Virus record (IMG/VR): IMGVR_UViG_3300007562_000007
Location: 1-40,280 of that record
Length of the DNA stretch: 40,280 nt
Strand: one strand, 5' to 3'
Source of the DNA: a virus
Taxonomy: Duplodnaviria > Caudoviricetes
Shown here piece by piece: positions 282-36,660 of the stretch. Each line of letters opens with the position of its first letter. The first letter of the stretch is position 1. The notes under the pieces were generated by a model. It worked only from the letters and a program-made list of their open reading frames with translations. It made no database searches and was not told the origin of the DNA. The position numbers and the translations under genes are program-made.

Positions 282-1160
282 TTAAGATGCCAATGCTTCA
301 TCTTTGTTATCATATAAGATACCGTTATTTGCGCAATCATTTTTCTTCAAACGTCTAACTTCTCTATAAAGTTTAATTGAAGTTTTTCTGAGTTCTATAT
401 ACTCTTTGGGTAATTCTTCAAATTTAATTTTATACTTTTTGAGTTCATCCTTCAAAACAGTTTTCATATAGGAATCTGCAAGTTCTTTACTTGTCTTTAT
501 TCTATATTTAACCTTGCTTTTCTTGTTTCCTTCGCTATTTTGTTCTCTACGATGTTTGCCGTAGATTAAGCGACATTGTCTACATCTACATTGATATTTA
601 AGATTTTTTTCACGTTCAACTATTTTCTTACAGTCTACACACTTTAACAAACTACCATTTGATTCTATTATTTTGTTTCTGACTATTAAAGATTCTCTAA
701 GTTCCTCAACAGTACTGTTTTTGAAATGTTTTGAATATAAAAGAGTTTTTAAATAAAATTCTGAAAGTGTTTTTCTTTCTTCTTTAATTCTTTTGGACTT
801 CATCTCATTTAGACATTTTTTACAAAACCTTTTTCTGATGGGAAAGGCTTCAAAAGATTTTGCCACATTACAACCTTTACATATTTTCAATCCTTCTGGG
901 GTTATATGGCTTCTGTCTAACAGCATCTTTTGTCTGTACTGCTCTACGGTAAGTTTAGATTTTGTAACCTTAATGCGTTGCTTAATATAAACATCAGATA
1001 ATTCTTTACTATTTTTGACAATTCTTCTTTTACGTTGTTCTGCATAACAAATCTTACACTTATACAAATAACCTAAAAGTCCCTTTTTATTCTTATAGTC
1101 TTGCATTTCATTCAATGGTTTTTCTATATTACACATTTTACATAATTTAGTTTCACACAT
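282..1160 (-). CDS. basic protein with three Zn-ribbon (CxxC...CxxC) repeats, probably DNA binding
   Basis: CKMC/CKIC, CKGC/CKKC and CVDC/CRQC pairs, each followed by an ELSDVYIK / TLSEFYLK / ELADSYMK motif; very K/R-rich. Confidence 0.75.
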   Translation of the reverse strand: MCETKLCKMCNIEKPLNEMQDYKNKKGLLGYLYKCKICYAEQRKRRIVKNSKELSDVYIKQRIKVTKSKLTVEQYRQKMLLDRSHITPEGLKICKGCNVAKSFEAFPIRKRFCKKCLNEMKSKRIKEERKTLSEFYLKTLLYSKHFKNSTVEELRESLIVRNKIIESNGSLLKCVDCKKIVEREKNLKYQCRCRQCRLIYGKHRREQNSEGNKKSKVKYRIKTSKELADSYMKTVLKDELKKYKIKFEELPKEYIELRKTSIKLYREVRRLKKNDCANNGILYDNKDEALAS

Positions 1161-2097: not shown

Positions 2098-2167
2098 AGT
2101 GTGCCTCCGTAAGATACCTATCTATCTGATATCATATAAGATACCCATTTTTCCGCATGGATACCTT

Positions 2168-2270: not shown

Positions 2271-2289
2271 GGGTTAATTTAACGGGCTT
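2271..2289 (-). repeat. 19-bp intergenic repeat copy 1 (candidate phage RNAP promoter/regulatory site)
   Basis: GGGTTAATTTAACGGGCTT, identical to 30180-30198. Confidence 0.8.
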
Positions 2290-6805: not shown

Positions 6806-7239
6806 TACTCATATAAATCTAATGTAAAATATCCAGCAGAAGTTGTATCACCAGATGGATAGATATCTGGAAAACCTCCTAAGTAGATCCTCAACGTATT
6901 ACCATTGAGGATTGTAAAGGAGTCGTTGGTCATACGAGCTGTTTGTGATGGAACTCCAACATAGACTAAATAGAAGTGAGATACAGCAACTGGAATAATA
7001 CCAATGATATTAGTATCATTAGTTATATAAGATGTTACATCTAAATCAAAAACAGAATATGTAGTATATTCATTATTCCTACTTGTATCGGTTACTGCAG
7101 TCAATCCTGAATATAACCAATTATAACCAACTCCTGGATAACCTATATAAGTAGTACTACTTATGAATTTAAATATTCTATCGGAACTGTCTAAGTTCAG
7201 GTTACCGTTAGAATCTCTCAATTGAAAACCCATTGTCAT
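6802..7239 (-). CDS. minor tail tip protein
   Basis: MGFQLRDSNGNLNLDSSDR N-terminus; translationally coupled to the tip gene. Confidence 0.7.
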   Translation of the reverse strand: MTMGFQLRDSNGNLNLDSSDRIFKFISSTTYIGYPGVGYNWLYSGLTAVTDTSRNNEYTTYSVFDLDVTSYITNDTNIIGIIPVAVSHFYLVYVGVPSQTARMTNDSFTILNGNTLRIYLGGFPDIYPSGDTTSAGYFTLDLYEY

Positions 7240-10200: not shown

Positions 10201-13200
10201 GTGCCAGCTGTATAAGATGTAGTCTTAGAAGCAGCATTGGAAGCTATTGTCGCATTACCGGCTAGTGTCAAAGCACTTGAGTTTTGAACGTAATCACCGA
10301 TTGTAGCACCAACTGTCGCACCAGCTTCAATACCAGTTAATTTAGTACCTTCAGCCGAATTAATTCCGGCCAATGTAGTAGGTCTATCGCCAATATTGGT
10401 CCATTTTTGATCCAATACATGAGGAAGCCAAGGAGTTCTTGTTGAACTTCTTTCTATTTTAACATCACATACTCTAATATCCCCAGAAGCATGTTGCCCA
10501 GCTTGAGCAAAGAATCTCATACTACAAGATGCCATATTAACGTCAGCGCTATTAAACACAAAAGTATATAATGTTGGTACTATTGTAGGAGTTACAGCAT
10601 ATTGAGGTAAAGTATCTGGATATAAGTCAACTTGTAATGTACCACCAGCCACGGTAGTCCAGCATTCAAAAGATACTACATAATCCGCTGAAGTCGCTAA
10701 GTTTAAAGTTTCAGAGGTTGCAGAAATTGTACCCGCACCTGCTGCTAATAATAAAGCTTGTTTATTAGCTGCATAAACATTTTGTTCTATAGTTACACTA
10801 TTTAGGGTCCAAGTATCTACTGATCTAACTAAGTTAGGATTAAATCTAATCTCGCTATTTTGAACTTCTTCAATTGCGGGAGTCCAAGCAGAATACTTAT
10901 TACCTTCTTCTAGTTTAACAGTTGCCACATTAAAAACATAGCCTGCAACAAAAACAGCCGGATAATAGAAATAAAATCTACAATAACAAGCACCAGCACT
11001 GACAGGAGTTTTAAAGGTTTGATAAACCATTTTCCAAGAAGTGCTTATTGTATTTTCAGCAACTAAACCTGTTTCTTGGTGTAAGTTAGCAGTATCTTCA
11101 TCCCTCCAAACCTGAATATGTAATGGTGTGTCGTAATTGTTAGCGGCAGAAGCAGCAGAACCTTTAACTAATGCACTAACGGTATATTCAGTATCCGCTT
11201 TTAATCGCATGACGTTACTGTTTAAAATACCACCTGCTCCAACTAATTTAATGGTTGGATAGCCTGCATATAAAGTGGCATAATCAAGAGTTAAAGTAGA
11301 ACCGTTTGTAGTCCAAGAGTCCAAACTATCAAATTGTCCACTGTTACGCATAAGGTTAGTGCCACCTACTTTAACTAAGGCGTTATTAACCACAGTTCCA
11401 GCATTTGCACTTACACCTTGAATAGCTCCATTGGCGTCTACATAAGTGTTATTAGCATCCAAAGCGCCAGTATAAGTATCTCTAAAGTTTGGTGGTATAG
11501 TAAAAGCTGAAGGAGTTGTTGCGTTACCAACTTGCTCTTCCAACATTACACCATCAATCCAGAAGTTCTTATTCAAAGCATGATTATCAAATCTCAATTT
11601 AAATGATGTTAATGCACTTGCAGATAAGTCCAATATACCCCAAAGCCTAGTCCAAGTGGCTGCCGTTAGAGCTGTAGCATTATACACAGAAGGGTATAGA
11701 CTTGCGCCATCATATAAACCACCAAAAACACCAGATACGTTCCAAACAGCTGCCGCGGTTGCTGTGTCACTGTAAACATAATAAGAAAATATCCATTTCT
11801 TATTTGGAGGAATTATTACAGGATAATCTGTAGTAGATATGAAGCTACTTGCAACGCTTGTGGTTGCAAATTTCATTGATTTTGTTCCAAAATACTTAAT
11901 GGCTGTATCTTGTGACAAAGTAACTGTTGCTCCTGAGCTGAAAGGAGGTAAGGTTGCTTCTTCAAAAGTGCAATGCCTTGGAGACATCGCATTGACACCA
12001 CTACCTGCAACCTGATCTACAGTGATATCTGAAACCTTAACCCACGCACTACCATCCCATTGATTTAAACTTCCTGTGCCTACAGTAGTATTGTACCATA
12101 GGTCTCCAGTAGTATATGTTCCACCTGTAGGAGTTGTGGTTTGTCGATAGATAGCATTCTTGGTTGCATCCAAAGCACCGACAAATTTCTCAAGGAAATT
12201 AGGAGGCACGTTAAAAGCACTAGGAGTTGTTAAAGTTCCTATTTGCTGTTCCACCATTAAACCATCAAACCATACTATACCGCCAGCTGTGTTGACATCA
12301 ATACGCATAATGGCTTGAGTTGAAGCATCTGTAGTTAAATCAATTACACCACTTATTCTAGTCCAAGTGTTTGCCACAGTAATGCCAGAAGCCGGATAAT
12401 GTGCCACAGGTGTCTTAATATAAATATCACAAGAAGTTCCAGCAGTTGCACTATAAATATAGCCAGATATGATCCACTTCTTATTAGGTTGTAAAGTTAT
12501 ATTATGATCAGCATTTGTAGCGCCTAGATAAGTATATGCTTCTAAGGTAGCGCAAGTCATTTTGACAGACTTAGTTCCAAAGAATTTTTGAGCAGTATCT
12601 AGAATAATTGTACCGCTATTAGCAACTCCCGATACTGGAGGTAAAGTTGCTTCTTCAAAAGTACAATATCTAGGATTACAGATATTTATACCATTACCAC
12701 TTAACTGGTTCAAAGTAACGTCGGCATTGGGTGCAGGAATATTAGTTCCAGTGACATTATTCCAATTGAAACCTGTTCCTGTCTGAAATATAGCTGTACC
12801 ATTGGCATTTCTGATGTCAATGCCATTCGCATAAAGAGTGCCTGTTTTATCAAGCCTCCAACCTGCATATGTACCAGTTGTAGAATAGTTACTAGATTGT
12901 AGAATATTATCAATCTGGGCCATTTCAGTAATTACTGCTGTACCTGTAACAAGTTGTCCAGCACCAACAGAACCTGCAATTAGCTGACTTCCGCTGAAAA
13001 ATGCGGAACCATCACCACCTTTTAACCCTGTATAAGCAGCACCTCCAGAATAAGAAGCAAGTATCCACTTATTTGCACCTATAGCAGTTGAAAGTGTAGT
13101 TGTAGTCTGTAATGCAGTTGTACTAATAGTTGGATCAAAATACACATATATTTTTGCTGTGGTGTATGCCACACCTGCAGTATTTGCAGAAATTGTATAA

Positions 13201-16200
13201 GTAGTTGTACCATTTTTGATAATGGATCCACCTGTCCAATATACACTATTTGCAGTAGGTGTATTTGCCGTAAAAGAAATACCTGTCAAATTCCATTGAT
13301 TGACTTCAGCTGTTGTTGAAGTTGCGGCCTGTCTAGGAGAACTTTCAATACCTGCACCATAATGATCATGCACAATTACAGTGTAATAATAAGTTGTTCC
13401 AGCAGTTGCTTCAAAGTCTACATAGTTATTTGTGGTAATTATTGAGGTGGGTGTACCACCTGTGGCAGCTGTATATTGATTAAATTGATATTTAACAATA
13501 TCAGTGTCAGTCACAAAAGTAGCTTTTAGTGCCGTAACACCCATCAATCCACTTACTGTAAAGGTTGTGGCCACTGGAGCTGTATTTTCTATGGTTGCAT
13601 TGGTGGATGTCAATGACAAATAACCTGCGGAATCCAACACAAATACCTTTACATCAAACTTTCTTGTAGCTGTTCCAAATATTGCAACATTCTCTTCATA
13701 GCTTAACTTAAACGTACCGCCCAAATCAAAATTTGGAGTTATATTGTAAGTCGCTTTTAAAGTTGTTGTTCCAAAATTAAATATCTGCAATACATATTTA
13801 GAGATACTTGCATTTTTAACACTATTAATCGCTGGATTTGCCCAAGTCAAGGTTACATCACGAGTATTGAAAAATGTATCTGTTTTTCCTTCTACTTTTA
13901 AATTTGTTGGAGGTTGTAAATCAGATACTTGTAAAGCAGCTGTTCCTGTTCCAGTATAAGCTGTTATCAATTTATTATTTTTGATATCATCAATATTTAT
14001 ACTGGTTTTGACTGTATGCAAAGTTGCATCAGTAGATTTTATGTCAAAATAAACATACAAAATACCTGTTGTCCAAGTTGCACTTGAAGCTGTTACTGTA
14101 GTCAACAACGTGTTATTTTTGTAAACACTGAAAGCATTCCAAGCAATCACCTTTGTTGTACCATTTGGGGTCAACACTAAATTTTCAAACTTATAAGTAT
14201 TTGGATTGAAAAACTCAGCTTCAACTGTACTGGTGTATGTGAAATTTGAGGTTCTACCTGATCTTGAAAAAGCTTTTACACCGAAGAAAGCACTTGTCAC
14301 ATCCAACTTAGGAAGCACAAAAGTTGTGTCTGTGGCTCTGCCTATCTCATTGAATATTGGTAAACCATCAATGGTTTTGGGATCACCTGCAGCATGCATA
14401 TATAGGATGTAACCGGCAAGTTCTGAAAAACTCACTGCAGTCCAATCCAATGTACCTGAAGTATCCGCCAAAGCATTTGACTCAGGAGTGAATACCAATT
14501 GAGATGGTGAAGGTATAGAAGTATTGTACAAATTATTCGGTTGTATGTACTGGTCTATCTTTTGCGCCCATGCCAATTGAGTGTAGTCGAATCTCTGAGC
14601 TACAACCTCACAAGTATTGTCTTCTCCAACTTTTACACTGTTTATTCTAAAGTAAGTGTTGGATATTGCCAATGTTGTACTGTTAACTATTACAAAGTCA
14701 CCAGGCTCATAGTATTTTTCATTCAAAATGTATTTGAATTTCAAAGTATAGGCAGACCTACTTGTTCTTACCAATTCTTCAGCCTTTGCCAATGCATGAT
14801 AATAATCACTTATGCCATCAGAAAACATTTCAGACTCTAACGGAATACTGGCATCTTCAAGCAACATTTTATTGTAAACTGTGGCATCTGTTGTGATTGT
14901 TGCAATCGAACTATAAGCAGTTTCTCTTGTTGACCAAATTATCTTTGTTCCAAACAACAGTCTAGCTCCAGCAGCTTTTTCCAAAGAAGTGTTAGTCGCA
15001 GTTATTACAATTTTGTAAACTGTATCTGCTAAAGCATTACCCAATGTTATTGTTGAGCTGCTCAATACTTGCCAGTTAGTATTTGTGTAAGTACCCAATA
15101 CTGTAGCGCCACTATATAGTGTCAGTGTCATTGAGTTATCTGCACAATATTCCAAGGTCATTGCACCAACATCGGCTTTTCTCACAATAAAATTATAAGT
15201 TAAAGTTGTTGTGTTGGTTGTACCTGACCATACACCATAATTGTTTAGAAATCTACCGCCTGTGTAATTTTCATCATAACTGTAATCTGCCAATGGATAC
15301 TTAATACCGCCCACACCTCTTAAGTATGTTGCTGATACTTTTGGTGGCCATGATACAGAATCTTCTTTGAAGTTTTCACATTCATTTTGAAAGCGTATTG
15401 TACAGTTATTTAGCCTTTCACTCGCGCTTGGCCAAGTTATTTCAAAGTCTTGATCCAATACTAAGTTATCATCTGTTATTGTACCTGCGGAAACAATTCC
15501 AGAGTTACCGACAATAGGTAAACCATTTGCATCAAAGCTAACAATTGGATACTGTAAACTTAGTTTATATTTACCACCGGACCAAATAAGTCTGGCATCA
15601 GCCATAGTTCCTAAAAGAGTTTCAATATTATCTCTGATTGTCTTTTTAGGATCTATGATTATATTACATTCATATAACGGTAAGTCTCTTACAACATTAC
15701 CATTTAAAGTTGTTGCTGGTGCGTTTATTGAACCATCTGTAGGTTTCCAAATCTTACCACCTACCACAACATTCTTTTGAACCACTCTATTGCAAACAAC
15801 TGCTGCAGCTTCAAAAGAAGAAAAATCAATTTCGGACGTATCTACTCCTGCACCGGCCACAGAATCTAATAAGTAATCCAATAAACACCATGAAGGATTA
15901 TTACTATATTCCCATGTTGTGTTTAAAATACCACTTACAACCTTTCTGATTAATTTACCTTCTATTAAGAATTGTAAAGTAGGTACCGAAGTGAATTGTG
16001 GATCGTCTCTATCTATTCTAAATACAGCTGATGCATAAGCCATGCCATCGAATGTTGCTGTACTTCTATCTGGAAAATTGGCCGAAATTAAAGAATCGGC
16101 TTTACCAATACCTGTAGCATTAAAATGAGTATCAATTCTCAGAGCTGACCTAGGCTTGTTAGGATCATCCCATTTGGTTTTTTCTGGAGAATTTTCTTCA

Positions 16201-16745
16201 GTGAAATAGTTCGAGGATGGTACACTACCGTAAGTACCTAAAGCAGGGTCGTCTAAGTATCTTGACTCATCTATGATAACGTCCAAAATATCATTGATTG
16301 GACCTCTACAGATAGCTTGTTGAAAATATAAAAACTCATTTCTAGAACCATCTGTGAAAGAATGATCCAATAGTGTCGATTGCGTATAAGCATAGTTTGT
16401 CTTTACAAGACTTGCTACACCAGTAACATCATTGACAAGCATTGAGTAAAAACCTGATCTTGTTTGAGACAATCCTGTATAAAAAGCCTTATCAGCGTTT
16501 GTTGCTACGTAGTTAAAATCGCTGGAGGTATTGTGATATACCCTTACACCGCCTATTTTAACGCGTCCATAAGCCAACGAAATATTGTCAGGATTTCCTT
16601 CCGTTACCAGTTCATAACCTTTTCTGGCATCTGCAGCGTCATTATTTTGTTGTGGCGTTTTCTTTTTTGATTGAGTCAGTTGATATATTGTTGATGCAAT
16701 TGTCATTGCCAAAGATATCAACATGAATACCGTAGACCATGCCAT
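7236..16745 (-). CDS. giant tail tip / host-specificity (gpJ-like) protein with FN3-like, carbohydrate-binding-like and beta-sandwich repeats
   Basis: N-terminal tip motifs (AYGRVKIGG, SNNPSWCLLDYL, EPGDFV), J-like LQSSNY...AGWRLDKTG and C-terminal IKVYDASGVVRIHIGDL; 3169 aa. Confidence 0.9.
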   Translation of the reverse strand: MAWSTVFMLISLAMTIASTIYQLTQSKKKTPQQNNDAADARKGYELVTEGNPDNISLAYGRVKIGGVRVYHNTSSDFNYVATNADKAFYTGLSQTRSGFYSMLVNDVTGVASLVKTNYAYTQSTLLDHSFTDGSRNEFLYFQQAICRGPINDILDVIIDESRYLDDPALGTYGSVPSSNYFTEENSPEKTKWDDPNKPRSALRIDTHFNATGIGKADSLISANFPDRSTATFDGMAYASAVFRIDRDDPQFTSVPTLQFLIEGKLIRKVVSGILNTTWEYSNNPSWCLLDYLLDSVAGAGVDTSEIDFSSFEAAAVVCNRVVQKNVVVGGKIWKPTDGSINAPATTLNGNVVRDLPLYECNIIIDPKKTIRDNIETLLGTMADARLIWSGGKYKLSLQYPIVSFDANGLPIVGNSGIVSAGTITDDNLVLDQDFEITWPSASERLNNCTIRFQNECENFKEDSVSWPPKVSATYLRGVGGIKYPLADYSYDENYTGGRFLNNYGVWSGTTNTTTLTYNFIVRKADVGAMTLEYCADNSMTLTLYSGATVLGTYTNTNWQVLSSSTITLGNALADTVYKIVITATNTSLEKAAGARLLFGTKIIWSTRETAYSSIATITTDATVYNKMLLEDASIPLESEMFSDGISDYYHALAKAEELVRTSRSAYTLKFKYILNEKYYEPGDFVIVNSTTLAISNTYFRINSVKVGEDNTCEVVAQRFDYTQLAWAQKIDQYIQPNNLYNTSIPSPSQLVFTPESNALADTSGTLDWTAVSFSELAGYILYMHAAGDPKTIDGLPIFNEIGRATDTTFVLPKLDVTSAFFGVKAFSRSGRTSNFTYTSTVEAEFFNPNTYKFENLVLTPNGTTKVIAWNAFSVYKNNTLLTTVTASSATWTTGILYVYFDIKSTDATLHTVKTSINIDDIKNNKLITAYTGTGTAALQVSDLQPPTNLKVEGKTDTFFNTRDVTLTWANPAINSVKNASISKYVLQIFNFGTTTLKATYNITPNFDLGGTFKLSYEENVAIFGTATRKFDVKVFVLDSAGYLSLTSTNATIENTAPVATTFTVSGLMGVTALKATFVTDTDIVKYQFNQYTAATGGTPTSIITTNNYVDFEATAGTTYYYTVIVHDHYGAGIESSPRQAATSTTAEVNQWNLTGISFTANTPTANSVYWTGGSIIKNGTTTYTISANTAGVAYTTAKIYVYFDPTISTTALQTTTTLSTAIGANKWILASYSGGAAYTGLKGGDGSAFFSGSQLIAGSVGAGQLVTGTAVITEMAQIDNILQSSNYSTTGTYAGWRLDKTGTLYANGIDIRNANGTAIFQTGTGFNWNNVTGTNIPAPNADVTLNQLSGNGINICNPRYCTFEEATLPPVSGVANSGTIILDTAQKFFGTKSVKMTCATLEAYTYLGATNADHNITLQPNKKWIISGYIYSATAGTSCDIYIKTPVAHYPASGITVANTWTRISGVIDLTTDASTQAIMRIDVNTAGGIVWFDGLMVEQQIGTLTTPSAFNVPPNFLEKFVGALDATKNAIYRQTTTPTGGTYTTGDLWYNTTVGTGSLNQWDGSAWVKVSDITVDQVAGSGVNAMSPRHCTFEEATLPPFSSGATVTLSQDTAIKYFGTKSMKFATTSVASSFISTTDYPVIIPPNKKWIFSYYVYSDTATAAAVWNVSGVFGGLYDGASLYPSVYNATALTAATWTRLWGILDLSASALTSFKLRFDNHALNKNFWIDGVMLEEQVGNATTPSAFTIPPNFRDTYTGALDANNTYVDANGAIQGVSANAGTVVNNALVKVGGTNLMRNSGQFDSLDSWTTNGSTLTLDYATLYAGYPTIKLVGAGGILNSNVMRLKADTEYTVSALVKGSAASAANNYDTPLHIQVWRDEDTANLHQETGLVAENTISTSWKMVYQTFKTPVSAGACYCRFYFYYPAVFVAGYVFNVATVKLEEGNKYSAWTPAIEEVQNSEIRFNPNLVRSVDTWTLNSVTIEQNVYAANKQALLLAAGAGTISATSETLNLATSADYVVSFECWTTVAGGTLQVDLYPDTLPQYAVTPTIVPTLYTFVFNSADVNMASCSMRFFAQAGQHASGDIRVCDVKIERSSTRTPWLPHVLDQKWTNIGDRPTTLAGINSAEGTKLTGIEAGATVGATIGDYVQNSSALTLAGNATIASNAASKTTSYTAGTLTLAGDATVAGTTVSKGVDYVYNIYKVAGANAWDTQAYSSQSFTNNCYIEYQVDAIAQDIMVSLNTDPALDATYTGLDYAFHVNSANNVYAYESSVGTQIAGAYGMLDTFRVEYVGSNITYRRNNQIVRSVGTTAGRTFFLDISLATPNTTVKNLRMGTFTDRTFTAGTLTLAGNATINANSTSKPGATAAWDTQAYSTQYYQGGCAVRASVSAAATDAAFGLNSDPLTDASHTSIDYEVIFQAANTFVLYESNVSTGVTGTYLPSDVFEVEYTNCVVIYRKNGVVIRCVNTIVGRNFWFDSSIYTSGRGLTGIQFGTYNMPSGYTPTAITFTGGAAVRPANLTLVPSTLTLNNIANTTISGNTITKTGGTTSVWDSGAYSSQSYTGGCAVRASSDTTSNQMIGLNSDAIPTATYSGIDYAIYLASGAFQVYENGTQVGIYGTYVATDVVEVEYYGSNVYYKKNGVVVRISATTAGRSFYLHYSGFVLNSVLSNIQFGTYQTGDWDKKALSLQSYVDYCAAKFSFPADSTNRIAGLATIDFVANYTYDFSGALLTNTTFAGTVSTNDSGVSTLFTNAAGDQFLRLTSLSYNPYDNYIIKIRAKLTVGSVWEGALYFTNPLHGEAALIRQFIYMPTPTAGAWTDIILDMRNIDSDYVFGGNITQLRFDFVQSIGESCAIDYIQIGYERPDYTLETGFYASSNGSVYPMKDAAIISGAPSTTYIATDVFEVDVSGGIVYYKKNGSVFHYTDIPTGRAYYLKELLYSANSSITSASFGTYPTPAWDTQAISNQFYTNGIIVTFKANNLYSYTMAGLNTDPALNASYTGLDHAFYMVPGGGLYIYESGTQVAGFSSTYTTTDVLEIYYLAGVLKYKKNGVVLRTVSIALNLTFYFDSSFVNGYSGINSVTMKYFTSTTSNLSGSITETNVSTYIGNAAIGAAQIGSLALVGTDNFDVKTALTGARMEMTGRAIKVYDASGVVRIHIGDLSA

Positions 16746-25547: not shown

Positions 25548-26336
25548 TTATACAGTATAAGCACCGTAGAAATCAGATTGAACTGAAATTGTCAAGGTGG
25601 CAGTGTTTGCATCTGTCAATTGAGGATTGATCAATAAAGATTCAACTTTACCGTACCAATACCATAAACTGTTGGATACTTCGCCAATACCTACAGAAGT
25701 AATTACACCAGCACCTGTTGCAGGAGGAGTACCACCTGTAAAGCCAGTTGCATCAAAAGTAATTACACCAGTACCTGTGTTGATTGTAGTTACTCTACCA
25801 TATTTAGTGGTAGGAGTTGCAGTATTGACTAAAACTTGGCCTACTTCAACAGAAGCTGCTTGCGCAACAGAAGTTACACTTGTAGCTGTAGAAGCTGTAG
25901 GAGTAATAGCAATACCTGAACTATAATTTACAGGTTGAGAATTTAACAATGCAAATCTAAAACCATATTGAACACCATTACCGACAGAAGCACCTAACAA
26001 TGTACCAGAAGCCCAATCGCTAGGTACATAGTTGAGTGTCAATTCGATTGTAGGCGCATCAGCTTGGCCTTGAACTTGACGAGAAGTTTTAGAGCCATAC
26101 TGGGCTACTTGTACGATATTTGCAGGAGTGCCGATTGAAGGAAACTCTCTAACATTTTGTACACGTACATAAGTATTTGCAGCCTTGGTGCCACTTGTTG
26201 TGATTTCATCTAAGAACAATGCTTGCCATTCAGCTGCGGTATCAATACCTGCACTTGAAAAAGTATAGTCTGTCAACGGAAATGCAACAGCCAAATCAGT
26301 AAACAGTCCAGCACCAATTGAAGAGATATGAGCCAT
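25548..26336 (-). CDS. tail tube protein paralogue 2, with inserted beta-rich domain
   Basis: VREFPSIGTPANIV...GQADAPTIELTLNYVP tail-tube motif; roughly 65-aa T/V/G-rich insertion relative to paralogue 1. Confidence 0.85.
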   Translation of the reverse strand: MAHISSIGAGLFTDLAVAFPLTDYTFSSAGIDTAAEWQALFLDEITTSGTKAANTYVRVQNVREFPSIGTPANIVQVAQYGSKTSRQVQGQADAPTIELTLNYVPSDWASGTLLGASVGNGVQYGFRFALLNSQPVNYSSGIAITPTASTATSVTSVAQAASVEVGQVLVNTATPTTKYGRVTTINTGTGVITFDATGFTGGTPPATGAGVITSVGIGEVSNSLWYWYGKVESLLINPQLTDANTATLTISVQSDFYGAYTV

Positions 26337-26346
26337 AAATTACCCC

Positions 26347-26949
26347 TTAAATTGTGTAAGAACCATAAAAGTCTGATTGTACAGAAATGGTTAAAGTGGC
26401 TGTGTTGGCATCAGTCAATTGTGGATTGATCAATAAAGATTCCAATTTACCTACCCAGAACCATTGGCTATTTTCTTTTGTGCCTAAGCCTGCAACCAAT
26501 GAGCCGTAAGCTGTAGGTTGTGCATTTAAAAGCGCAAAACGAATCGGGTATTGATTGCCATCGGCAACTTTCTTACCCAATACACTTGTAGATGACCAGT
26601 CATTTGGTACATAGTTCAATGTAATTTCGATTGTAGGCGCATCAGCTTGGCCTTGAACTTGACGAGAAGTTTTAGAACCATATTGAGCAACTTGAACAAT
26701 ATTGGCTGGAGTACCAATTGAAGGAAATTCACGAACGTTTTGAATACGTACGAATTGACCAACTGCTGCGGCTACAGTGCCATTTGCGGCTACTTCAGAA
26801 CCACAAAAAGGGCCTGTGGTAATATTTAACCATGTTGCAGAGCTATTGAAAGCTGCAAGTTCGGCTGAAGTCCAAGTACCGTCTCCAGTCTTGACTCCCA
26901 CAGCCAGATCGGTGTATAAACCTGCACCGATTGAAGAAATGTGTGCCAT
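26347..26949 (-). CDS. tail tube (major tail) protein paralogue 1
   Basis: same motifs; follows the tail terminator gene. Confidence 0.85.
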   Translation of the reverse strand: MAHISSIGAGLYTDLAVGVKTGDGTWTSAELAAFNSSATWLNITTGPFCGSEVAANGTVAAAVGQFVRIQNVREFPSIGTPANIVQVAQYGSKTSRQVQGQADAPTIEITLNYVPNDWSSTSVLGKKVADGNQYPIRFALLNAQPTAYGSLVAGLGTKENSQWFWVGKLESLLINPQLTDANTATLTISVQSDFYGSYTI

Positions 26950-28191: not shown

Positions 28192-29379
28192 TTAAGAGTG
28201 GAATACTGGTAGAATACCCAGAGACAAAGCAGAAGCAGATTTACGGATCCAAGAACCAGTAGTAGAAGCTAAACTTGCAGAAACAACAGTTGTCAATTCT
28301 TTTGGTGTACCGCCTTCTACTGCATAAGCATACTCAGCATCTGAAGGGAATTTATCAGCAGAACCAGCCCAGTTGTAACCGGCAGGAGCCAATACATAAC
28401 CCCAACGATACCAGATGTCGGTAGAACCACCGCCGTTATAGGTGTTGGCATTACGGAAGATTTCAACTGACTCAGGAACAGTCAAAGGTTGCATAGCAAT
28501 TGCGCCTGGTAATACAATAAAGCTGGTTTTAGTACCAACAATATCAACACCTGCGCCAGTGTTCAATTTTGTCAATTCAGCAGAACTTAAGCTTTGTGAA
28601 GCACGAGTTTGGATCAAACGGAATTTACCGTTGAAGATAGTTTCAAATTGAACGTTACCTTCGGTCAATACAACGTTGTTGATCAAGTTAGCTGAACGGA
28701 AAGATGACATTACCTCTGGAGAAGTAATCAAATATGCCCACTCTGGCTCACGATCTTTAAATGCTTTACCGAAAGCTTGTAAGAAACCTTCAGCACGAGC
28801 TGAACCTTGAACAGCAGCGGTTGCAGCGATTACAGGGGCATTTGCACCTAAATCAACATAGAAACCATAAGCTTTATCTGAAGGGTCATTTGAGAATGTT
28901 TGACCACCTAGACCAGTGCTACCAGAAGCAGCGGCGCAACCATTCAATGCTTCAGAAATGGCAACACCTTTTAAGATAGCCATCAAAGCATTGTGTTCGT
29001 CTTGCGCACGAGTTTCAGCAAAATCACGGCTAATTTTGGCCAAACCGTCTTGTTGGGTAACGATTTGTTGCATGTTAACTTTAGACGCACCATGAGTACG
29101 TACTGATTTAACATATGTTAAGTAATCGCTTGAATAACTGGTTTTAGAACCATCGGTTGCAGTTGTTAAAGAAGCAACGTTAATTACTGGGTTAAGAGGT
29201 TTGAACCATCTTACTTGACCTACGAATGTTTCGGTGTTTGGATCAATGTTTGGGTTTGAGCTTACAATGCCTGTGCCAACCAATTTTCTTGCGGTAGTGT
29301 AGGCTTCATCTGAGTATGCAGAAATGGTTTCTTGCAATACAAAGTTAGATGCGCCTGATACGTTAGTGCGAACTGTCAT
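28192..29379 (-). CDS. major capsid protein
   Basis: 395 aa; position between scaffold and adaptor; FRNANTYNGGGSTDIWYRWGYVLAPAGYNW C-terminal capsid-like motif. Confidence 0.85.
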   Translation of the reverse strand: MTVRTNVSGASNFVLQETISAYSDEAYTTARKLVGTGIVSSNPNIDPNTETFVGQVRWFKPLNPVINVASLTTATDGSKTSYSSDYLTYVKSVRTHGASKVNMQQIVTQQDGLAKISRDFAETRAQDEHNALMAILKGVAISEALNGCAAASGSTGLGGQTFSNDPSDKAYGFYVDLGANAPVIAATAAVQGSARAEGFLQAFGKAFKDREPEWAYLITSPEVMSSFRSANLINNVVLTEGNVQFETIFNGKFRLIQTRASQSLSSAELTKLNTGAGVDIVGTKTSFIVLPGAIAMQPLTVPESVEIFRNANTYNGGGSTDIWYRWGYVLAPAGYNWAGSADKFPSDAEYAYAVEGGTPKELTTVVSASLASTTGSWIRKSASALSLGILPVFHS

Positions 29380-29418: not shown

Positions 29419-30075
29419 TTAAGATTTTCTTAATTTACCTTCTTGAGCTAATTTTAACACTTCTTCCTGAGACATTTCGAATAATGACTTAGGTGTTGAA
29501 GAAGTACTTGTTGAACTTTCAGAACTACCTGAACCACTAGATGTTTTTGCTTTGAACAAAAAGGAATTATCGTCGTTTTCAGAGAAAACTTTCACGAAAT
29601 CAGAAATTGAGATTCCAGATTTATGAACCCACAAACCCTTATCATCTTGTACAAGTTGGTCAACAACTTCTTTACGAGCCATTTCAATAGCTTTGTCGCT
29701 TCGAAATGTATACTTTGATAGCTCGGTACGTACTTCCAGATCTCTGGTAAGTTCGATGTTCCGTTTCTCCAATGCTTCTCTTTTAGCTTTTTCTTCTGCC
29801 AATTGCAGTTCATAAGCTTCTTTGTGTTTACCTTCGTCTTGTAACCGTTTTAATTCAGCTTCTTTTTCTTTTTGTTCGTATTCAGCAAGCTTTTTAAGAG
29901 TTTCGTCTCTAGTGCCATAGGCTTTATCTAGTTTAGATTTAATGTCTTTCAAACTTTCTTCTAGTCGTTCTTTAACAATTTTTTCTACGATTTCACTATC
30001 AACGGTAGCACTGCTTGTTGTGTTTTTTGATTCATCGTCAGAAATATTGTTTTGTTCATCAGTATTTGTTGTCAT
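29419..30075 (-). CDS. capsid scaffolding protein
   Basis: acidic N-terminus, E/K coiled coil, FLFK then S/G/T linker and short C-terminal helix; upstream of capsid. Confidence 0.85.
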   Translation of the reverse strand: MTTNTDEQNNISDDESKNTTSSATVDSEIVEKIVKERLEESLKDIKSKLDKAYGTRDETLKKLAEYEQKEKEAELKRLQDEGKHKEAYELQLAEEKAKREALEKRNIELTRDLEVRTELSKYTFRSDKAIEMARKEVVDQLVQDDKGLWVHKSGISISDFVKVFSENDDNSFLFKAKTSSGSGSSESSTSTSSTPKSLFEMSQEEVLKLAQEGKLRKS

Positions 30076-30086
30076 TTTTATTACCT

Positions 30087-30179
30087 TGAGTACAACTCAT
30101 TATTTTGTAATTTAAAGATACAATCTTTATATTGGAATTAATTAGTATAATGTTGTAATCTCTTACACTACTATTATAC
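30087..30179 (-). promoter_or_regulatory. structured 5' leader of the scaffold gene (three hairpins)
   Basis: TGAG-TACAA-CTCA (30087-30099), TAAAGA-TACAA-TCTTTA (30113-30129) and GTATAAT...ATTATAC (30145-30179). Confidence 0.55.
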
Positions 30180-30198
30180 GGGTTAATTTAACGGGCTT
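30180..30198 (-). repeat. 19-bp intergenic repeat copy 2 (candidate phage RNAP promoter/regulatory site)
   Basis: GGGTTAATTTAACGGGCTT, identical to 2271-2289; begins 2 nt after the RNAP stop codon. Confidence 0.8.
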
Positions 30199-30200
30199 TG

Positions 30201-33200
30201 TTAACCAACTCCGTACCATCCATAATCATTTTTAAACCCTTTAGGAATTTCTTTTAAAATATCGTCTTTATTTAATATATCAGATTCTTTTAAAACTTTT
30301 CCACCAACAACAGATTTACCCGCAATAGGAACTAATCCTATTTGAATAGCTTCTTCCAAATATTGATCATAAAGCTCTTGCGGTAGCCCTCTGTCACGCA
30401 TTTCGTTTAAGGTAGAAATGATTATATTTCTGTCCAACATTTTAGCATAAATTTTACGTAATGCATTTCTTGCGTTTAGCATATCAGCGGCATTTGTAAA
30501 AAATGCGTCATGAATTGTTGAAGTCGGTATATTATTATCTTTTCCCCACAAATGAAAGTTTTTGACAATTACTGCGTCGTTGGAATGGTTTCCATTAACG
30601 GCAAAAGCAGTTCTTGCTCGTGTTGCATCTGCAATATCATTAATTTTACCATCTTTGTTCAGTAACTCTTCCCACCAAGTTAATTCAGTCTTTTGAGGTA
30701 CTTGTAAAATATTACTGGTCCATTCACCATCTTTATTTTTATAGAATAACCTTTCCTCAAATTGTTGAGTGAAGTTTTGTTCTATTACTTTTCCATCAAA
30801 ATTAACCCAAGGAACATTTGTCCAAGCTTTAGGCAATTTGTTTGCATTCAATAACTCCACTTCCAAAACTTTTTGCTCAGTAAGCAATTCACCTTTAACG
30901 AGAGCCCCAGGGGTTGGTAATGATGGTCTTATAAAAGATAATTTAAAAAACTTACCGCCAATCCTTCTAGCTTCTGGAGATTTTACTCCATAAAGGATGT
31001 CATGCAAATTACTGTCAGGTTTATAAAAACTAAGTCGCTTTATCAGCTTTTCACTTAGTGGTTCGCCAGCCTTTACACCAACAATTCTGCTGATTAAATC
31101 TGGCAATACAAAACCTTTCTTTTCTACACCAACCAATCTCGCTTTAGTTACTGTTTTCCAATCAAATGAAGATTCAGATGGTTTAGCATTCTTAAGATAG
31201 TCTTCGGCCAATCTTCCAAAGAATCTTGTGAAGTCTTTTAAAATTGGAACTTGCTCTCTTAGATGCTCACTCATTATTTTTGCAACATCTTTAAAATCGT
31301 TTGGAGTTACAACTCTATCATAATTTAAAGAAAGCTTCTCAACAAGATCTTTTGTTTTTGGATCTAAGAAATATAGTTGCTCTAATATCTCATCACCAGG
31401 ATCAATACCTTTATTGAAGATATCTTTTACATTTTCTCTAAGTACTCTAAGCTCATCTGCAGTCACAGGGTCAAATCTTTCATATCTAGCTATTCTTGCA
31501 GATATTTCGTTAAGTACAGTCTCTCTGTCTGAAGCTTTAACAACTAATGTGGCTTTGTCTTTACCCAATACCTTAGATAGCTTACCTTCTACATTTAAGA
31601 TGCCTGTTCTTTCGCCAGCACCATAGAATGTTACCATATTTTGAGCTTTGGCAGCTTTTCTAAGATCTTTCTCAGTTAATCCAAGTTTTTCATTGATCAC
31701 TTTAAAACGAGGGTCATTGAAAGTAGCTGCTGCAATTTCGTCATATAATCTACGTTTTTGAGTTGTTGGAACCACATTCGATAATTCAGCTAACTGCTTA
31801 TTGCGTGTTGTGAGTGCAATAATTTGAGCTCCTGATGACGAAGCATCTTGTTCCAATGCAAGTGATATTTTATAATCTCTCAATTTTTCTAAAGAAGACT
31901 TACTGTAATTGCCACCTAGGTAATTATCTATTTTTGCAGTTTCAATTGCAAATCTAAAGAATTTTCCTAACTCTTCGCCATCAACTAAAGACACTGTATT
32001 TGATTCAAGTATTGCTCTGATATCATTAGGCTTCTTACTCAACATAAGATTTCCAATACGAACTAACTCAGGTCTCCACTTATCTGCAACTTTTTGTCTG
32101 CCTGTAATTGATAATGAGTTAAATCTACCTTCAAATGTGTCATTTAAACCACCTAAAAATGCTCCTATTTGATCTTGAAAATCTTCAAATTCTTCAGGGC
32201 TAAAATTCTTTGATTCAGCTGTGTTAAGAAAAGGTCTGAAAGTTTCTCCAGACTGAGGACCAATAAGCCCCCTATCATAGACACGAGCCCTATGGTCAAT
32301 AAAAGGATGATTACTAAAAGATTTCCCACTGCTGCGAAGCCATTGCATAGCTTTGAAACGCTCATAAGAGTCTCCTCTGGACGCTATGTATTTTCTATAT
32401 TCATTTCTTTCATCATAAAATTGAGCCTTACCTCTATCATCCTTAAAGTATAATAGTTTATCAACAAAGTCATAAAAGTCTTCATCAACTTTATATTTCG
32501 TCTTAGATGCCCATGTTAAAGCATCTATCATTTTATTATCTAGAAATTCTTCAGGGAATTCACTAAAACTTGAAGTAGATGTAATTGGTATTCGTGTATC
32601 TTCTAAACCCAATATTCCTCTATCTATCCAATAAGTTTTATAGCCTTCTCTAAACAATAATCTATTGCTGTCTTGTGTCACGCTAACACGAAGTCCAAGT
32701 TCAACCTTGCGGTTTAATCTGGCATACTCTTGGATGCGCGGATCTGTAACTCTTATATTGTAAGCAAGTGTATCGTAATAGGGGCCGAAGTAAGCGCCAC
32801 TCAAACGACTTTTCATCCTACGCTTTTGAACACCAAAAGTTTCTACTTGGAAGAATTTATCAACCTTCTTACTTTCAAGTATTTTCATCCCCAATTCGAA
32901 CCATTGCTTACGCCATCCATTTAAATTGGCCATATTATAAAGGTCTCTTCCAAGCATAACAGCAAATTGATCTCTATCTGGACTATCCGCCATACTTAAT
33001 CTGTGTGCAAATCTCAAATAAAATTGATTTAGATCATCTTCAGACAATCTACTTCTAATTTTAAGTGGAATCTGTGGATCCAAGAAAGATCTCAATTCTT
33101 TAGCAATAGTTGGAGCAGTTTTATCTTCCCACTTATTTCTCGCCATAATATTACTTATGAAGTTATCATGTAAATCATTTAATTGAGTAACTCCAAGAAC

Positions 33201-34877
33201 TGGATCAATATAGTTGTCTTGTAGTAAACGTTTCATCAAATCAGTATCTTTACGCAATTGGGTTTCTATTGAATCAGACACATTCATAACATCAAATTTA
33301 ATTTGAGATTGAACAACAGCTTTAAAATTTGCCCAAATTTCTTTGTTACTGCGATATCTGCCAAAAATAATTCTCAAATTGTCGGTAACTACAGCTCTTT
33401 CATTTACACTCATAGTATCCGAAAGATCTTCCACAAATTTACGGATAAAAACTTTATCCCTATCCAGAAGAACCTTACTTTCGTCCACCAATTTCAAGTT
33501 ATTCGCCAATACAGTAGGACTTGGTTGATATAACCTTACATCTTCGTATCTGCCTGTTGACGGATTAAATTTTAATTGTTCTTCCTTTGGAGGTGAATTT
33601 AATACTCTATTTCTAGTAGCTTTCTTATTGTGTAATAGAGTGCCTCTATAATTAGTGTATGATAATGTGCCTTCCAATTCTTTTGTTTGAAGTATGTAAT
33701 AATCCAACAAAGTTTTTCTCAATTTCGGGCTATCAATCAGATCATCTGGATTTGAAGCGCCAAGTTGCATAGCATCTAATTTCTTTTTGGCATTTGCAAA
33801 CTTAATTGTATCGCCTGACACTTCATAAGTAGAGTCTGTGGCGGCTCTCAATTCTCGAATGCCAAGCTCTTTTCCTGCATCATTCGTAAATTTATCAATT
33901 GATACCTTACCAGTGTTCAATAAATCAACTTTCTGATAATCACCTAAATGAGTATACTGTATTTCTCTAGGTTGTCTCAATAGCCAATCATTGTAACTTT
34001 CTTTTAATGGGGTTTGTCCATCATAAAAAGCTATTTGCTCTTTTGAAAGTTTTTCAATATTTCTGCGTCTGACTTGAGCTACACCTTCGAGTTTGGCTAT
34101 GTCTTCCCAAGATTTAAACACAGGAATTGTTGTAGAACGGCAATTGTAGTGAGCAGGAGGCAGATGGATTTTATCCCCAATAGGGTAGATATGCCCATCA
34201 CGATGCGCACACAGAGGTGTCGTCCTCGTGTCCAGAACTGCCACATATTGCCATCCTGTTATGGCCTTTTTATTGGCTTCGTAGATTTCATGGTCAGCTT
34301 GAGCATGTACACTTGTAATTGCAGTGACAACCAAAGCTTTTGATTGCATCATGGTAATATTATGAATATTACCTTTTCTGACTGCTAAGGCGATTTCATC
34401 TACAGTGTTACCCTCCGCTATACCTTTTCGTATTAGTGCTTCAAGTCGTTTCTTTTCACTGAAACTAACGCCTGACCAGCCAGCTGCTAAATTCTTATTT
34501 TCAATCAAAGGTCTTTCCAAAACAATCTCTTCAGCAACACGTCTTTGAGGTCTTTCTGTTTTCCAAATAGAACCCATTGCTGTTTCTACGTTTTGATATG
34601 CAAAAGAAAGTTGATCCACTGCAAGATCAAGTAAAGATCTTTTACTTATATTGAAAGTTTCTTTATAAGTTCTTAAAAGTTCTTTATCAATTGCTTCTTG
34701 CAGTGCTTCAAAACCTTTTGGAGATAGCTTAGCTTCTTTTATTAACTTGTCAAGTCTTATGGTATGGCCATTAATCACTAATTCCACCTTACCATTAACA
34801 CGTTTTTCATACAGCCGAATCATGGCTGCTCTATTTACTGTTTTATCGTATATTTGTGTATTAGCATTAGTAGCCAT
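30201..34877 (-). CDS. MuF/SPP1 gp7-like head morphogenesis domain fused to a T7-type single-subunit DNA-dependent RNA polymerase
   Basis: MuF: WQYVAVLDTRTTPLCAHRDG...PPAHYNCRSTTIP. RNAP: DHRARVY...PQ, motif A DASSSGAQ (D1011), motif B RKAAKAQNMVTFYG (R1073/K1077/Y1085), NGNHSNDA, motif C IHDAF (D1457). Confidence 0.93.
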   Translation of the reverse strand: MATNANTQIYDKTVNRAAMIRLYEKRVNGKVELVINGHTIRLDKLIKEAKLSPKGFEALQEAIDKELLRTYKETFNISKRSLLDLAVDQLSFAYQNVETAMGSIWKTERPQRRVAEEIVLERPLIENKNLAAGWSGVSFSEKKRLEALIRKGIAEGNTVDEIALAVRKGNIHNITMMQSKALVVTAITSVHAQADHEIYEANKKAITGWQYVAVLDTRTTPLCAHRDGHIYPIGDKIHLPPAHYNCRSTTIPVFKSWEDIAKLEGVAQVRRRNIEKLSKEQIAFYDGQTPLKESYNDWLLRQPREIQYTHLGDYQKVDLLNTGKVSIDKFTNDAGKELGIRELRAATDSTYEVSGDTIKFANAKKKLDAMQLGASNPDDLIDSPKLRKTLLDYYILQTKELEGTLSYTNYRGTLLHNKKATRNRVLNSPPKEEQLKFNPSTGRYEDVRLYQPSPTVLANNLKLVDESKVLLDRDKVFIRKFVEDLSDTMSVNERAVVTDNLRIIFGRYRSNKEIWANFKAVVQSQIKFDVMNVSDSIETQLRKDTDLMKRLLQDNYIDPVLGVTQLNDLHDNFISNIMARNKWEDKTAPTIAKELRSFLDPQIPLKIRSRLSEDDLNQFYLRFAHRLSMADSPDRDQFAVMLGRDLYNMANLNGWRKQWFELGMKILESKKVDKFFQVETFGVQKRRMKSRLSGAYFGPYYDTLAYNIRVTDPRIQEYARLNRKVELGLRVSVTQDSNRLLFREGYKTYWIDRGILGLEDTRIPITSTSSFSEFPEEFLDNKMIDALTWASKTKYKVDEDFYDFVDKLLYFKDDRGKAQFYDERNEYRKYIASRGDSYERFKAMQWLRSSGKSFSNHPFIDHRARVYDRGLIGPQSGETFRPFLNTAESKNFSPEEFEDFQDQIGAFLGGLNDTFEGRFNSLSITGRQKVADKWRPELVRIGNLMLSKKPNDIRAILESNTVSLVDGEELGKFFRFAIETAKIDNYLGGNYSKSSLEKLRDYKISLALEQDASSSGAQIIALTTRNKQLAELSNVVPTTQKRRLYDEIAAATFNDPRFKVINEKLGLTEKDLRKAAKAQNMVTFYGAGERTGILNVEGKLSKVLGKDKATLVVKASDRETVLNEISARIARYERFDPVTADELRVLRENVKDIFNKGIDPGDEILEQLYFLDPKTKDLVEKLSLNYDRVVTPNDFKDVAKIMSEHLREQVPILKDFTRFFGRLAEDYLKNAKPSESSFDWKTVTKARLVGVEKKGFVLPDLISRIVGVKAGEPLSEKLIKRLSFYKPDSNLHDILYGVKSPEARRIGGKFFKLSFIRPSLPTPGALVKGELLTEQKVLEVELLNANKLPKAWTNVPWVNFDGKVIEQNFTQQFEERLFYKNKDGEWTSNILQVPQKTELTWWEELLNKDGKINDIADATRARTAFAVNGNHSNDAVIVKNFHLWGKDNNIPTSTIHDAFFTNAADMLNARNALRKIYAKMLDRNIIISTLNEMRDRGLPQELYDQYLEEAIQIGLVPIAGKSVVGGKVLKESDILNKDDILKEIPKGFKNDYGWYGVG

Positions 34878-34881
34878 AGTA

Positions 34882-34959
34882 TCACTTTTTCTGTTTTGGT
34901 TTAGTTTCTTTTTTGGGATAAGAATACAAGTTTATTGGCGGAAACCAAATACGTATCAT
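34882..34959 (-). CDS. 25-aa micro-ORF (not in ORF track)
   Basis: ATGA-coupled to the upstream gene; [25 protein letters not shown]; ends 4 nt before the RNAP ATG. Confidence 0.4.
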
Positions 34960-35099
34960 TTCTTTTTCCTTTTCTTTTTAGCTCTTTCAGCTTCACTCAA
35001 AGCAATGGCGATGGCTTGCTTCTGAGGCTTACCTTCTTTCATACCCATACTTATATTTTCTGAGATTGTCTTTTTAGAGAATCCTTTTTTAAGCGGCAT
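34956..35099 (-). CDS. 47-aa basic phage protein (not in ORF track)
   Basis: AGGAG SD; [47 protein letters not shown], a pattern recurrent in phage head modules. Confidence 0.8.
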
Positions 35100-36660
35100 T
35101 TTCTGCTCCTATTTGATTGGCTGATTGTTCATTCGCTTTTGGCATTAACATTTCATCATCATTGATTTCTTGCTTAGCCTCTTCATCATTATAATCAGGA
35201 GGAATTAAATCATTGTGTTTGAGTAATATCAACCAAATTGATCTTGGAATTAAACCTTGTTGATACCATTCAGTTGCCAATCTCAACCAATCTGCGCCAA
35301 TAGGAACAGGGTTGAAATCTGTAGACAATGAAAATTCAATATCCTTAGTTGTCAATTGTAAATCATAGCGCCAATTGATCATAAAGATAATTACTTGCGC
35401 CATAGTATTACTTACTTTATTATTTAAAGTACCCAATTGAGCTGTTTGAGCTGCATTGCGTATTTCCAAAGCCACCCCTGATTGTTCAGTCTCAGGGCTT
35501 AACATTCTTATGCCCAACTTAGCCATTTCTTCTATACTTTGGACAATTGCCCGATCCATATCTTGAAGAGCTGCTGTTGGAGTTTCCAAAACTTTGGCAT
35601 CATCACCTTGTCTCAAACGTATCCAACTGCCCAAACCACTGTTTACGATATTGTCAAACTCTTCATCAACCATATCAGAAATAATGATCGGTGTGTAGGT
35701 TGCTGCACCATACAATAAATGGTTTCTGCGACTTACTTTATTATACAGATTGATCTCTTTATCAATGATTGGAGACAACATAGGTTCAACCAAATCAATT
35801 GAGCCATTTAAAGGCCAAGCAGGAATAATCTTTAATGGCTCACCGTTTGCCAATATATTGCTGTAAGTTTCTTTTAAGTCAAATTGAACACGATTGGTTT
35901 TGATGTCTGCATTTTGGATTGCTCCACTTACCGTAGGAACATTCACTGTTGATGCATTCTTTTGGAACATTCTGATCTGATACTTACCGTCCACAAGTTC
36001 GTGTACCCAAACGGTATCCACGTATGTAGGATGAAACTCAGATTCATTATATTCTTCTTTGAAGCCTCTTACGATAACTCTATCCAAAATAGATTTACCA
36101 AAAGCATCAGAAGTTACTCTCCAATTGATAATCGATTCAGCTTTTTGCAATATAGGGTAAGGTTTAAAACTCTTCAATTCATCTTTTGAGTATTGGTCTG
36201 GATTGTTAATTTTAGGATAGTCAACAAATACCCATGCTCTAGAGGTTTGAACTTCTTCCCATAATGCAGAATCTAAAAATGCTGTTATCGGTGAGTCGTC
36301 TCTGCCAAACTCATTCATTATCCAGTCATAAGCTTCTTCAGGTATTGAGTCTGGCAATTCCAATAAAGGTCTTTTTCTCAATAAACCACCGACAATCATT
36401 TTTGCAAATTGTGCAGTGACTCCTGGTAACTCAGCTTCAGCTTTATAAAAACGATACTGATCCGGAGTCATTGAAGGTGAGAATGGGATTAACATATTGC
36501 TGAATGTAAATACATCCAACATATCATCATAGTCTTTTACATATTGTTCACCGCTGCATACGGCTCTACATCTTTCCCAAAGATCCTTTAAGGATTCATA
36601 AGCTGCATTTGGGTCTGCCACTGTTTTAACAGCAGCTTGTGCTGCATTTACAACTGCCAT
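35089..36660 (-). CDS. portal protein (DUF4055-type)
   Basis: 523 aa upstream of MuF; [17 protein letters not shown]...[15 protein letters not shown] motifs. Confidence 0.85.

Follow-up and report, generated by a model that had tools for sequence, protein, structure and literature searches.

Thermus phage P23-45 has been described as carrying a virion RNA polymerase (RNAP), gp96, fused to its tape measure protein, together with a non-virion RNAP, gp64 (PMC10770324), and coliphage N4 (Schitoviridae) as having a virion RNAP (vRNAP), gp50, and an RNAPII formed by gp15/gp16 (PMC4496689). MuF proteins such as SPP1 gp7 have an N-terminal MuF domain and are encoded by a single-copy gene adjoining the portal gene (PMC5576092, PMC5512222, PMC9503650, PMC6316719), and a few copies of SPP1 gp7 are targeted into procapsids by the portal (PMC6316719). 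The window analysed here, which is the entire IMG/VR record IMGVR_UViG_3300007562_000007 (40,280 nucleotides; a linear viral contig with a completeness rating of 58%), contains a gene that shares these MuF features and in which the MuF module is joined to a T7-family RNAP (hereafter named MuF-RNAP). The fusion is real, widespread and apparently undescribed in print. By analogy, it most likely works like the P23-45 and N4 relays, yet belongs to neither family, and we consider it probable that MuF-RNAP is a virion-delivered early polymerase in a relay of that kind. The gene, its parts and its neighbours are:

30201..34877, minus strand, MuF-RNAP fusion gene (open reading frame, Pfam, PHROGs and motif positions)
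33834..34877, minus strand, MuF (SPP1 gp7-like) module, residues 1-348 (Pfam 145-251; phrog_241 1-372; TIGR01641)
33183..33800, minus strand, conserved helical N-terminal polymerase extension, residues ~360-565 (outside the T7-aligned range)
30201..33182, minus strand, T7-family single-subunit RNAP, residues ~566-1558 (fold, motifs and invariant residues)
35089..36660, minus strand, portal protein, predicted docking partner of MuF (phrog_145, E 8e-52)
29419..30075, minus strand, head scaffolding protein (phrog_206)
28192..29379, minus strand, major capsid protein (PHROGs)

The locus is like that of P23-45 in that a siphovirus encodes a polymerase fused to a structural protein, first genes that include a second, free polymerase, and two classes of promoter-like motif, recognized here from sequence alone. 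The P23-45 enzymes, however, are described as two-barrel (DxDxD) RNAPs with the tail tape measure protein as carrier and its late genes as using the host RNAP (PMC10770324), whereas here both enzymes are of the T7 family, the carrier is the head protein MuF, and one motif class (class II, below) also precedes the terminase and capsid genes. As in N4, a T7-family polymerase, here proposed to be in the virion, would be followed by a second T7-family phage RNAP among the early genes. In contrast, N4 gp50 is a 3500-amino acid podovirus protein without MuF that uses hairpin promoters (PMC4496689) and has a C-terminal encapsidation region bearing a metallopeptidase, whereas MuF-RNAP has 1558 amino acids, belongs to a siphovirus and ends with the polymerase, with no HExxH motif; the second enzyme is here one chain, unlike the gp15/gp16 RNAPII. 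Two phage RNAPs, one of them tied to a virion protein, and two motif classes are present in this group, the second RNAP being found in the relatives. The cargoes described for MuF comprise nucleases, ADP-ribosyltransferases, peptidases, RelA/SpoT, 2H and Nudix domains and are found chiefly in temperate phages (PMC5576092, PMC5512222, PMC9503650, PMC6316719), and the word "polymerase" does not occur in the main text of PMC5576092; here the cargo is an RNAP. T7 RNAP (Autographiviridae) shares the fold, the N-terminal domain and the order of the catalytic motifs, but is a free early protein instead of being fused to MuF. If the proposed delivery is correct, this would be a third independent route by which a transcription enzyme enters a tailed virion, after the N4 ejection protein and the P23-45 tape-measure fusion, and the first T7-type enzyme carried on a head protein; MuF would then deliver housekeeping enzymes in lytic phages.

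The open reading frame (ORF) at 30201-34877 (minus strand) is a single unbroken frame of 1558 amino acids that contains both MuF and RNAP, flanked by the portal and the scaffold/major capsid genes within a siphovirus head-tail operon (PHROGs). A sequence-only reading of the window had placed such an unbroken frame between portal and scaffold and had reported in it a MuF signature and RNAP motifs in T7 order. The frame and its location were borne out by ORF calling and PHROGs, and all the motifs were found where that reading had put them: LDTRTT at 215, HYNCRS at 243, DHRARVY at 861, DASSSGAQ at 1011, R-x3-K-x7-YG at 1073-1086, HSND at 1431 and IHDAF at 1455. Both domains were also matched in the Pfam search (Phage_Mu_F at 145-251, E 5.9e-14; RNA_pol at the C-terminus, E 3.6e-12). 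The MuF domain scores above the curated cut-off, and its gene adjoins the portal gene and is present as one copy per genome. The record is a metagenomic contig, and an assembly chimera or a read-through artefact could produce such a frame; this explanation, the probability of which is practically negligible, is refuted. No joint or indel was observed across positions 28000-37500 in contigs from four public runs (two of which may be the record's own source), and the MuF/polymerase junction is bridged (33261-35586) by a contig in a run from a separate study. Two other contigs are 100% identical across all 1558 amino acids, and the sole ORF difference among the public-run contigs is the third base of Ala codon 1435. 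The same architecture is present in 208 related loci and in cultured phages.

These 208 related stretches were obtained, out of 217 candidates, by scanning IMG/VR, and 75 loci were retained. A protein search gave 480 matches among 7991 scored; both Pfam domains are present in 112 of the 120 matches listed and the remaining eight start mid-protein. Among 165 matching representatives at 50% identity, all 29 long distant ones chosen by hand have a MuF match (two just below the curated cut-off). The fusion is the sole MuF protein in 15/15 genomes. Among the 1180 GenBank phage records with a match, four do so over 80% or more of the protein, namely EBPR siphovirus 1, DSS3_VP1 (two records) and DSS3_PM1, where it is annotated as head or minor head protein. 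The survey proposed with the sequence-only reading thus found the fusion to be widespread and to occur in cultured roseophages as well. A stand-alone form of the fused polymerase was not found among 36 proteins inspected, in which the shorter matches begin mid-protein (this search was not exhaustive). Species genomes gave only two loci (one metagenome bin), one of them on a contig that at 74,179 bases is as long as a phage genome; this search yielded no prophage copy. No description of a MuF-RNAP fusion was found in the literature, mostly open-access, including the accessible text of PMC12697855, PMC7302621, PMC9855967, PMC9503650 and bioRxiv 2025.10.29.685362; the supplementary tables of PMC5512222 and PMC5576092 may list it.

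A sequence search of PDB chains with the fusion protein gave no match at E values up to 1, so a fold search was needed. The AlphaFold model of residues 361-1558 (predicted local distance difference test, pLDDT, 85.1; predicted template modelling score, pTM, 0.81) matched T7 and mitochondrial RNAPs in Foldseek (E 3e-18 to T7 RNAP). With VIA, residues ~570-1558 were aligned to residues 37-883 of T7 RNAP (Z 28.9; root-mean-square deviation 3.1 across 525 residues), with a lower score against the N4 mini-vRNAP (Z 18.5); sequence identity to T7 RNAP in the structure alignment is low (16-17%). The predicted model has both the right-hand polymerase fold and the T7-type N-terminal domain, and the structural comparison with T7 and N4 RNAPs suggested beforehand thus recovered a T7-type fold. 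The catalytic residues of motifs A, B and C are D1011, K1077, Y1085 and D1457. In the aligned homologues, as low as 21% identity, D1011, K1077, Y1085, G1086, D1434 and D1457 are unchanged in 112/112 and R1073 is retained in 95 of the 112. A basic hairpin (676-710) and a putative specificity loop (1364-1394) were named from their position and the predicted structure, with the terms "specificity loop" and "intercalating hairpin" taken from PMC4496689. The model of residues 1-760 has high local confidence (pLDDT 85.3), a pTM of 0.48 and pLDDT values below 50 at 349-359, which fits two modules joined by a linker. According to these models, the fusion protein is a complete T7-type RNAP tied to MuF through a short linker (349-359) that is likely flexible.

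One earlier claim had to be corrected. About 500 amino acids between the two domains had been considered unassigned, but the alignment with T7 RNAP begins as early as residue ~570 (residue 37 of T7 RNAP), so that most of this stretch is an ordinary T7-like N-terminal domain (VIA) and the unassigned middle is reduced to ~200 amino acids (360-565); this part remains without a counterpart. Neither residues 360-565 nor MuF gave a Foldseek match at E values up to 0.001 or an Atlas match, and with VIA both gave generic helical bundles only (360-565 being taken within longer models). The ratio of nonsynonymous to synonymous polymorphism (pN/pS) is 0.11-0.29 across all four parts of the protein, and 0.18-0.29 in the extension 360-565, with synonymous sites (pS) near saturation.

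The fold, the invariant catalytic residues and purifying selection all back the intact T7-type polymerase that the sequence alone had suggested. If the polymerase fold lacked catalytic activity and served as a structural or DNA-binding cargo, or if it acted as a toxin of the MuF type, the low similarity to T7 RNAP would be accounted for, and C-terminal MuF cargoes are often toxins (PMC5576092). This is nevertheless highly improbable: the catalytic residues are invariant in all the homologues aligned, the polymerase part is conserved at least as well as MuF, introns concentrate at the catalytic motifs, and no toxin-family match was obtained in Pfam, PHROGs or NCBIfam. Moreover, MuF toxins are reported in PMC5576092 only from temperate phages, whereas no prophage copy was found here. 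The gene is split in at least 13 of the 75 loci and has in-frame insertions in at least 10, with all of these positions at or beyond residue 880; Rfam identified group I introns in 5/5 tested loci, and the group I introns of the relatives interrupt the polymerase part only. Introns and in-frame insertions gather at the catalytic motifs of the fused polymerase in L001, L008, L016, L020, L064, L066 and other loci, and in relative G001 the second RNAP and the reductase are likewise split around endonuclease genes. The in-frame insertions of relatives near residues 987-991 and 1109 gave no intein model match in 5/5 and are accordingly not named inteins here. In a tree of 29 rows, which has long branches and only a midpoint root, the MuF-fused polymerases lie apart from T7 and from the second RNAP of the same phages. 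They appear to be a separate deep group of T7-like polymerases, a branch so far unstudied for which candidate promoters are now defined.

The second, free T7-like RNAP (hereafter RNAP II) was detected with PF00940 in 14/15 IMG/VR relatives, including 12/12 of those at least 90% complete; the relative without a match is a 55% fragment. It is also present in DSS3_VP1 and was not seen with this model in the partial EBPR record. In the annotated relatives the gene order is tail, small genes, RNAP II, single-stranded DNA-binding protein, DNA polymerase, primase-helicase, reductase, ligase, terminase, portal, MuF-RNAP, scaffold and capsid, nearly all on one strand. The window ends at an endonuclease gene, and since this gene is followed by RNAP II in the closest relative, the RNAP II of the present phage would lie beyond the left end. 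The promoter-like motifs of the window are:

2132..2156, minus strand, class I copy 1, where the early region of small genes begins, downstream of a hairpin with a T-rich tail (motif scan; hairpin read from the sequence)
310..334, minus strand, class I copy 2, which in relatives is just upstream of RNAP II (motif scan)
30180..30194, minus strand, class II, just past the MuF-RNAP stop and before the scaffold/capsid genes (motif scan)
2271..2285, minus strand, class II, second copy, ~80 bases before a hairpin (motif scan)

Class I has the consensus tGCGgaAAA-N3-gGTATC-TTATAT-GA, and its conservation drops immediately beyond the final GA. The two copies of the window compare with a chance expectation of 0.01. 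With up to two mismatches, class I was found in 15/18 records, 41/42 sites being on the coding strand (reversed control, 0), and in 14/14 relatives the 7 kb upstream of RNAP II contain 2-3 copies. A search with the motif only gave 118 loci, and the fusion is encoded by 14/15 of the long contigs examined and by 12/12 of the near-complete ones. In JGI metagenomes, 43 of the 51 class I loci of at least 2 kb match proteins of these phages (63/129 at all lengths). With class I located upstream of RNAP II, the first transcripts of the latter would depend on either the host enzyme or one brought by the virion. The presence of a second free RNAP, with an early motif class before it, gives indirect support to virion delivery.

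One important question is whether class I is read by the host enzyme. In that case the polymerase might be active only inside the infected cell (e.g. on late genes or on the packaging substrate), with MuF tethering it to procapsids and no delivery taking place. The fusion gene sits in the late head operon, class I copies occur in cellular-looking DNA (see below), and a T follows TATGA in 37 of 112 distinct class I sites, giving TATGAT after the core, while the copies in DSS3 have TATAAT; all this would suit such an explanation. However, TT precedes GCG in 38 of these sites and both features coincide in only 14/112, so the -35 TTG and the last -10 T are mostly missing, and what is invariant in class I corresponds to the segment left free in sigma-70 promoters. 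Both class I copies are absent from the 21 sigma-70-like matches of the window, and the sigma-70 reading of class I was rejected. The late modules, moreover, already have class II sites that track RNAP II, and a polymerase made late would have no clear use unless taken to the next cell. Purely intracellular activity is thus unlikely. An N4-type hairpin promoter was also rejected, a 5-bp hairpin being present in 3/111 class I sites vs 6/111 in the control; if class I is the promoter of the fusion, this differs from N4, with its hairpins of 3-base loop. A ribosome-binding-like site and a start codon follow within 60 bases of class I in 93/112 sites (a count made without a control).

Class II has the sequence CCCGTTAAATTAACCC. 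It occurs in 15/17 records at 69 sites, every one on the coding strand (one control match). These sites precede the replication, terminase and capsid modules and are also present where the tail region ends. In the window both copies are exact, and with two mismatches allowed the excess is modest (3/100 shuffles). In relative G014 class II is absent, and no class II equivalent of its own was found by motif search; class I is kept and typical. The RNAP II of this genome is the most divergent (52% vs 60-65%), with a predicted specificity loop that is shortened, whereas its MuF-RNAP is typical (69% vs 66-75%). Class I was assigned to the fusion because G014, with its altered RNAP II loop, lost class II yet kept class I, and class I is likely the promoter of MuF-RNAP. 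The same genome has a ~132-base tandem repeat in about six copies across the contig ends (76885-77325 and 1-250).

These data also bear on the explanations in which the enzyme is borne by the virion but has a mainly mechanical or priming role (DNA entry pulled by transcription, or primer RNAs), or in which the two motif classes are assigned the wrong way round. Transcription by the N4 vRNAP is described as aiding genome entry (PMC4496689), transcription-aided entry has been proposed for P23-45 (PMC10770324), and a class II copy is found upstream of the early region. Against these explanations stand the ribosome-binding-like sites and start codons that follow class I, and the change of class II, not class I, together with RNAP II in G014. 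Taken together, we consider these alternatives distinctly unlikely.

In the delivered-polymerase relay, the fusion likely enters the particle at the portal and reaches the cell together with the DNA, where it would transcribe the early genes. As judged from SPP1 gp7, it would be expressed late, as part of the head operon, and MuF would bind the portal. Its exit would be through the tail, probably in an unfolded state and possibly after cleavage at the linker 349-359. It would then initiate at class I, here interpreted as a double-stranded promoter of T7-like type with an AT-rich melting region and a purine start, to transcribe the small early genes and RNAP II. The latter would in turn read class II before the replication, terminase and capsid modules. 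With this fusion, rifampicin-resistant RNA becomes a simple read-out by which the ejection of MuF cargo can be tested directly.

Several observations weigh against this relay. A protein of 1558 amino acids would have to traverse a siphovirus tail, and the ejection of MuF cargo is itself described as "proposed" in PMC6316719. Most relatives have a class II copy a short distance upstream of the early region, and an extra class I copy lies past the replication module in 7/14, so that the two classes are not cleanly split by position. The argument from G014 for their assignment comes from a single genome, and the co-occurrence of motif and fusion is confined to one clade and hence non-independent. 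Finally, 8 of the 51 class I metagenome loci of at least 2 kb have no match to proteins of these phages, and exact class I copies occur in cellular-looking or mobile DNA, before ORFs of unknown function (L265:3001, L274:2314-2338, L284:825 and L292:3001). The copies of L274 and L284 follow a thioredoxin-reductase-like gene, that of L265 is beside DsbA and IS240, and that of L292 is beside a helicase and DUF805. The ORFs downstream of these copies gave no defence-family match, and that of L274 has only three homologues. The motif may thus be recognized by a host enzyme, or else these host genes may be under the control of the phage polymerase. It is possible, rather than probable, that a widespread aquatic siphovirus group runs its whole programme without the host RNAP, by means of two phage-encoded T7-family polymerases (one a tail-threaded MuF passenger with a long double-stranded promoter, the other for middle and late genes), and that some bacteria or mobile elements have put the early promoter before genes of their own, as a switch to which only the injected polymerase responds.

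The cultured roseophages DSS3_VP1 and DSS3_PM1 (Naomviridae; PMC8323127) have in common with the present phage the fusion, the gene order, the second RNAP and the two motif classes. Their fusion, annotated merely as "minor head protein-like", has 28.9% identity over 93% of the protein (structure E 7e-68 to the 1463-amino acid model), and "RNA polymerase" does not occur in the main text of PMC8323127. DSS3_VP1 has two class I-like motifs in the same register (~35799 and ~36246) at the start of the early region, and 11 exact T7-like class II sites with a G-rich start in middle and late places (2242-59196); weaker class II sites are also present, one of them (two mismatches) within the early region. 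Neither the T7-like nor the early motifs are mentioned in the accessible text of that paper. DSS3_VP1 on Ruegeria pomeroyi thus offers a cultured model with candidate promoters for both enzymes. The DSS3 phages differ in having deoxyuridine-containing DNA (dU-DNA), whereas only 1/14 close relatives of the present phage gave a match for a dCMP/dCTP deaminase, the window itself lacking the replication module; dU synthesis was likewise not found in putative Naomviridae members, according to PMC12669031. Uracil-DNA as a general reason for the fusion was rejected, the deaminase proxy being present in only 2/15 records. An HD-type dATP triphosphohydrolase-like gene is present in G007 (L082:11797-12342) and a dCMP/dCTP deaminase in G010 (30410-30757), and nucleotide modification may vary within the group.

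Other features were observed in the window, all on the minus strand. Two tandem paralogues of the major tail protein (262 and 200 amino acids, both phrog_158) are encoded at 25548-26949, a virion structural or tail protein of 3169 amino acids with internal repeats and no Pfam match at 7236-16745, and a short, Asp/Glu-rich and strongly acidic frame at 4552-4771, at the boundary region between lysis and early genes. The scaffold leader (30085-30135) has two small tandem hairpins right before the scaffold ribosome-binding site. Compensatory changes were observed in 2/10 pairs and the pattern of the second hairpin is present in 49/75 loci; these hairpins are a candidate translational operator.

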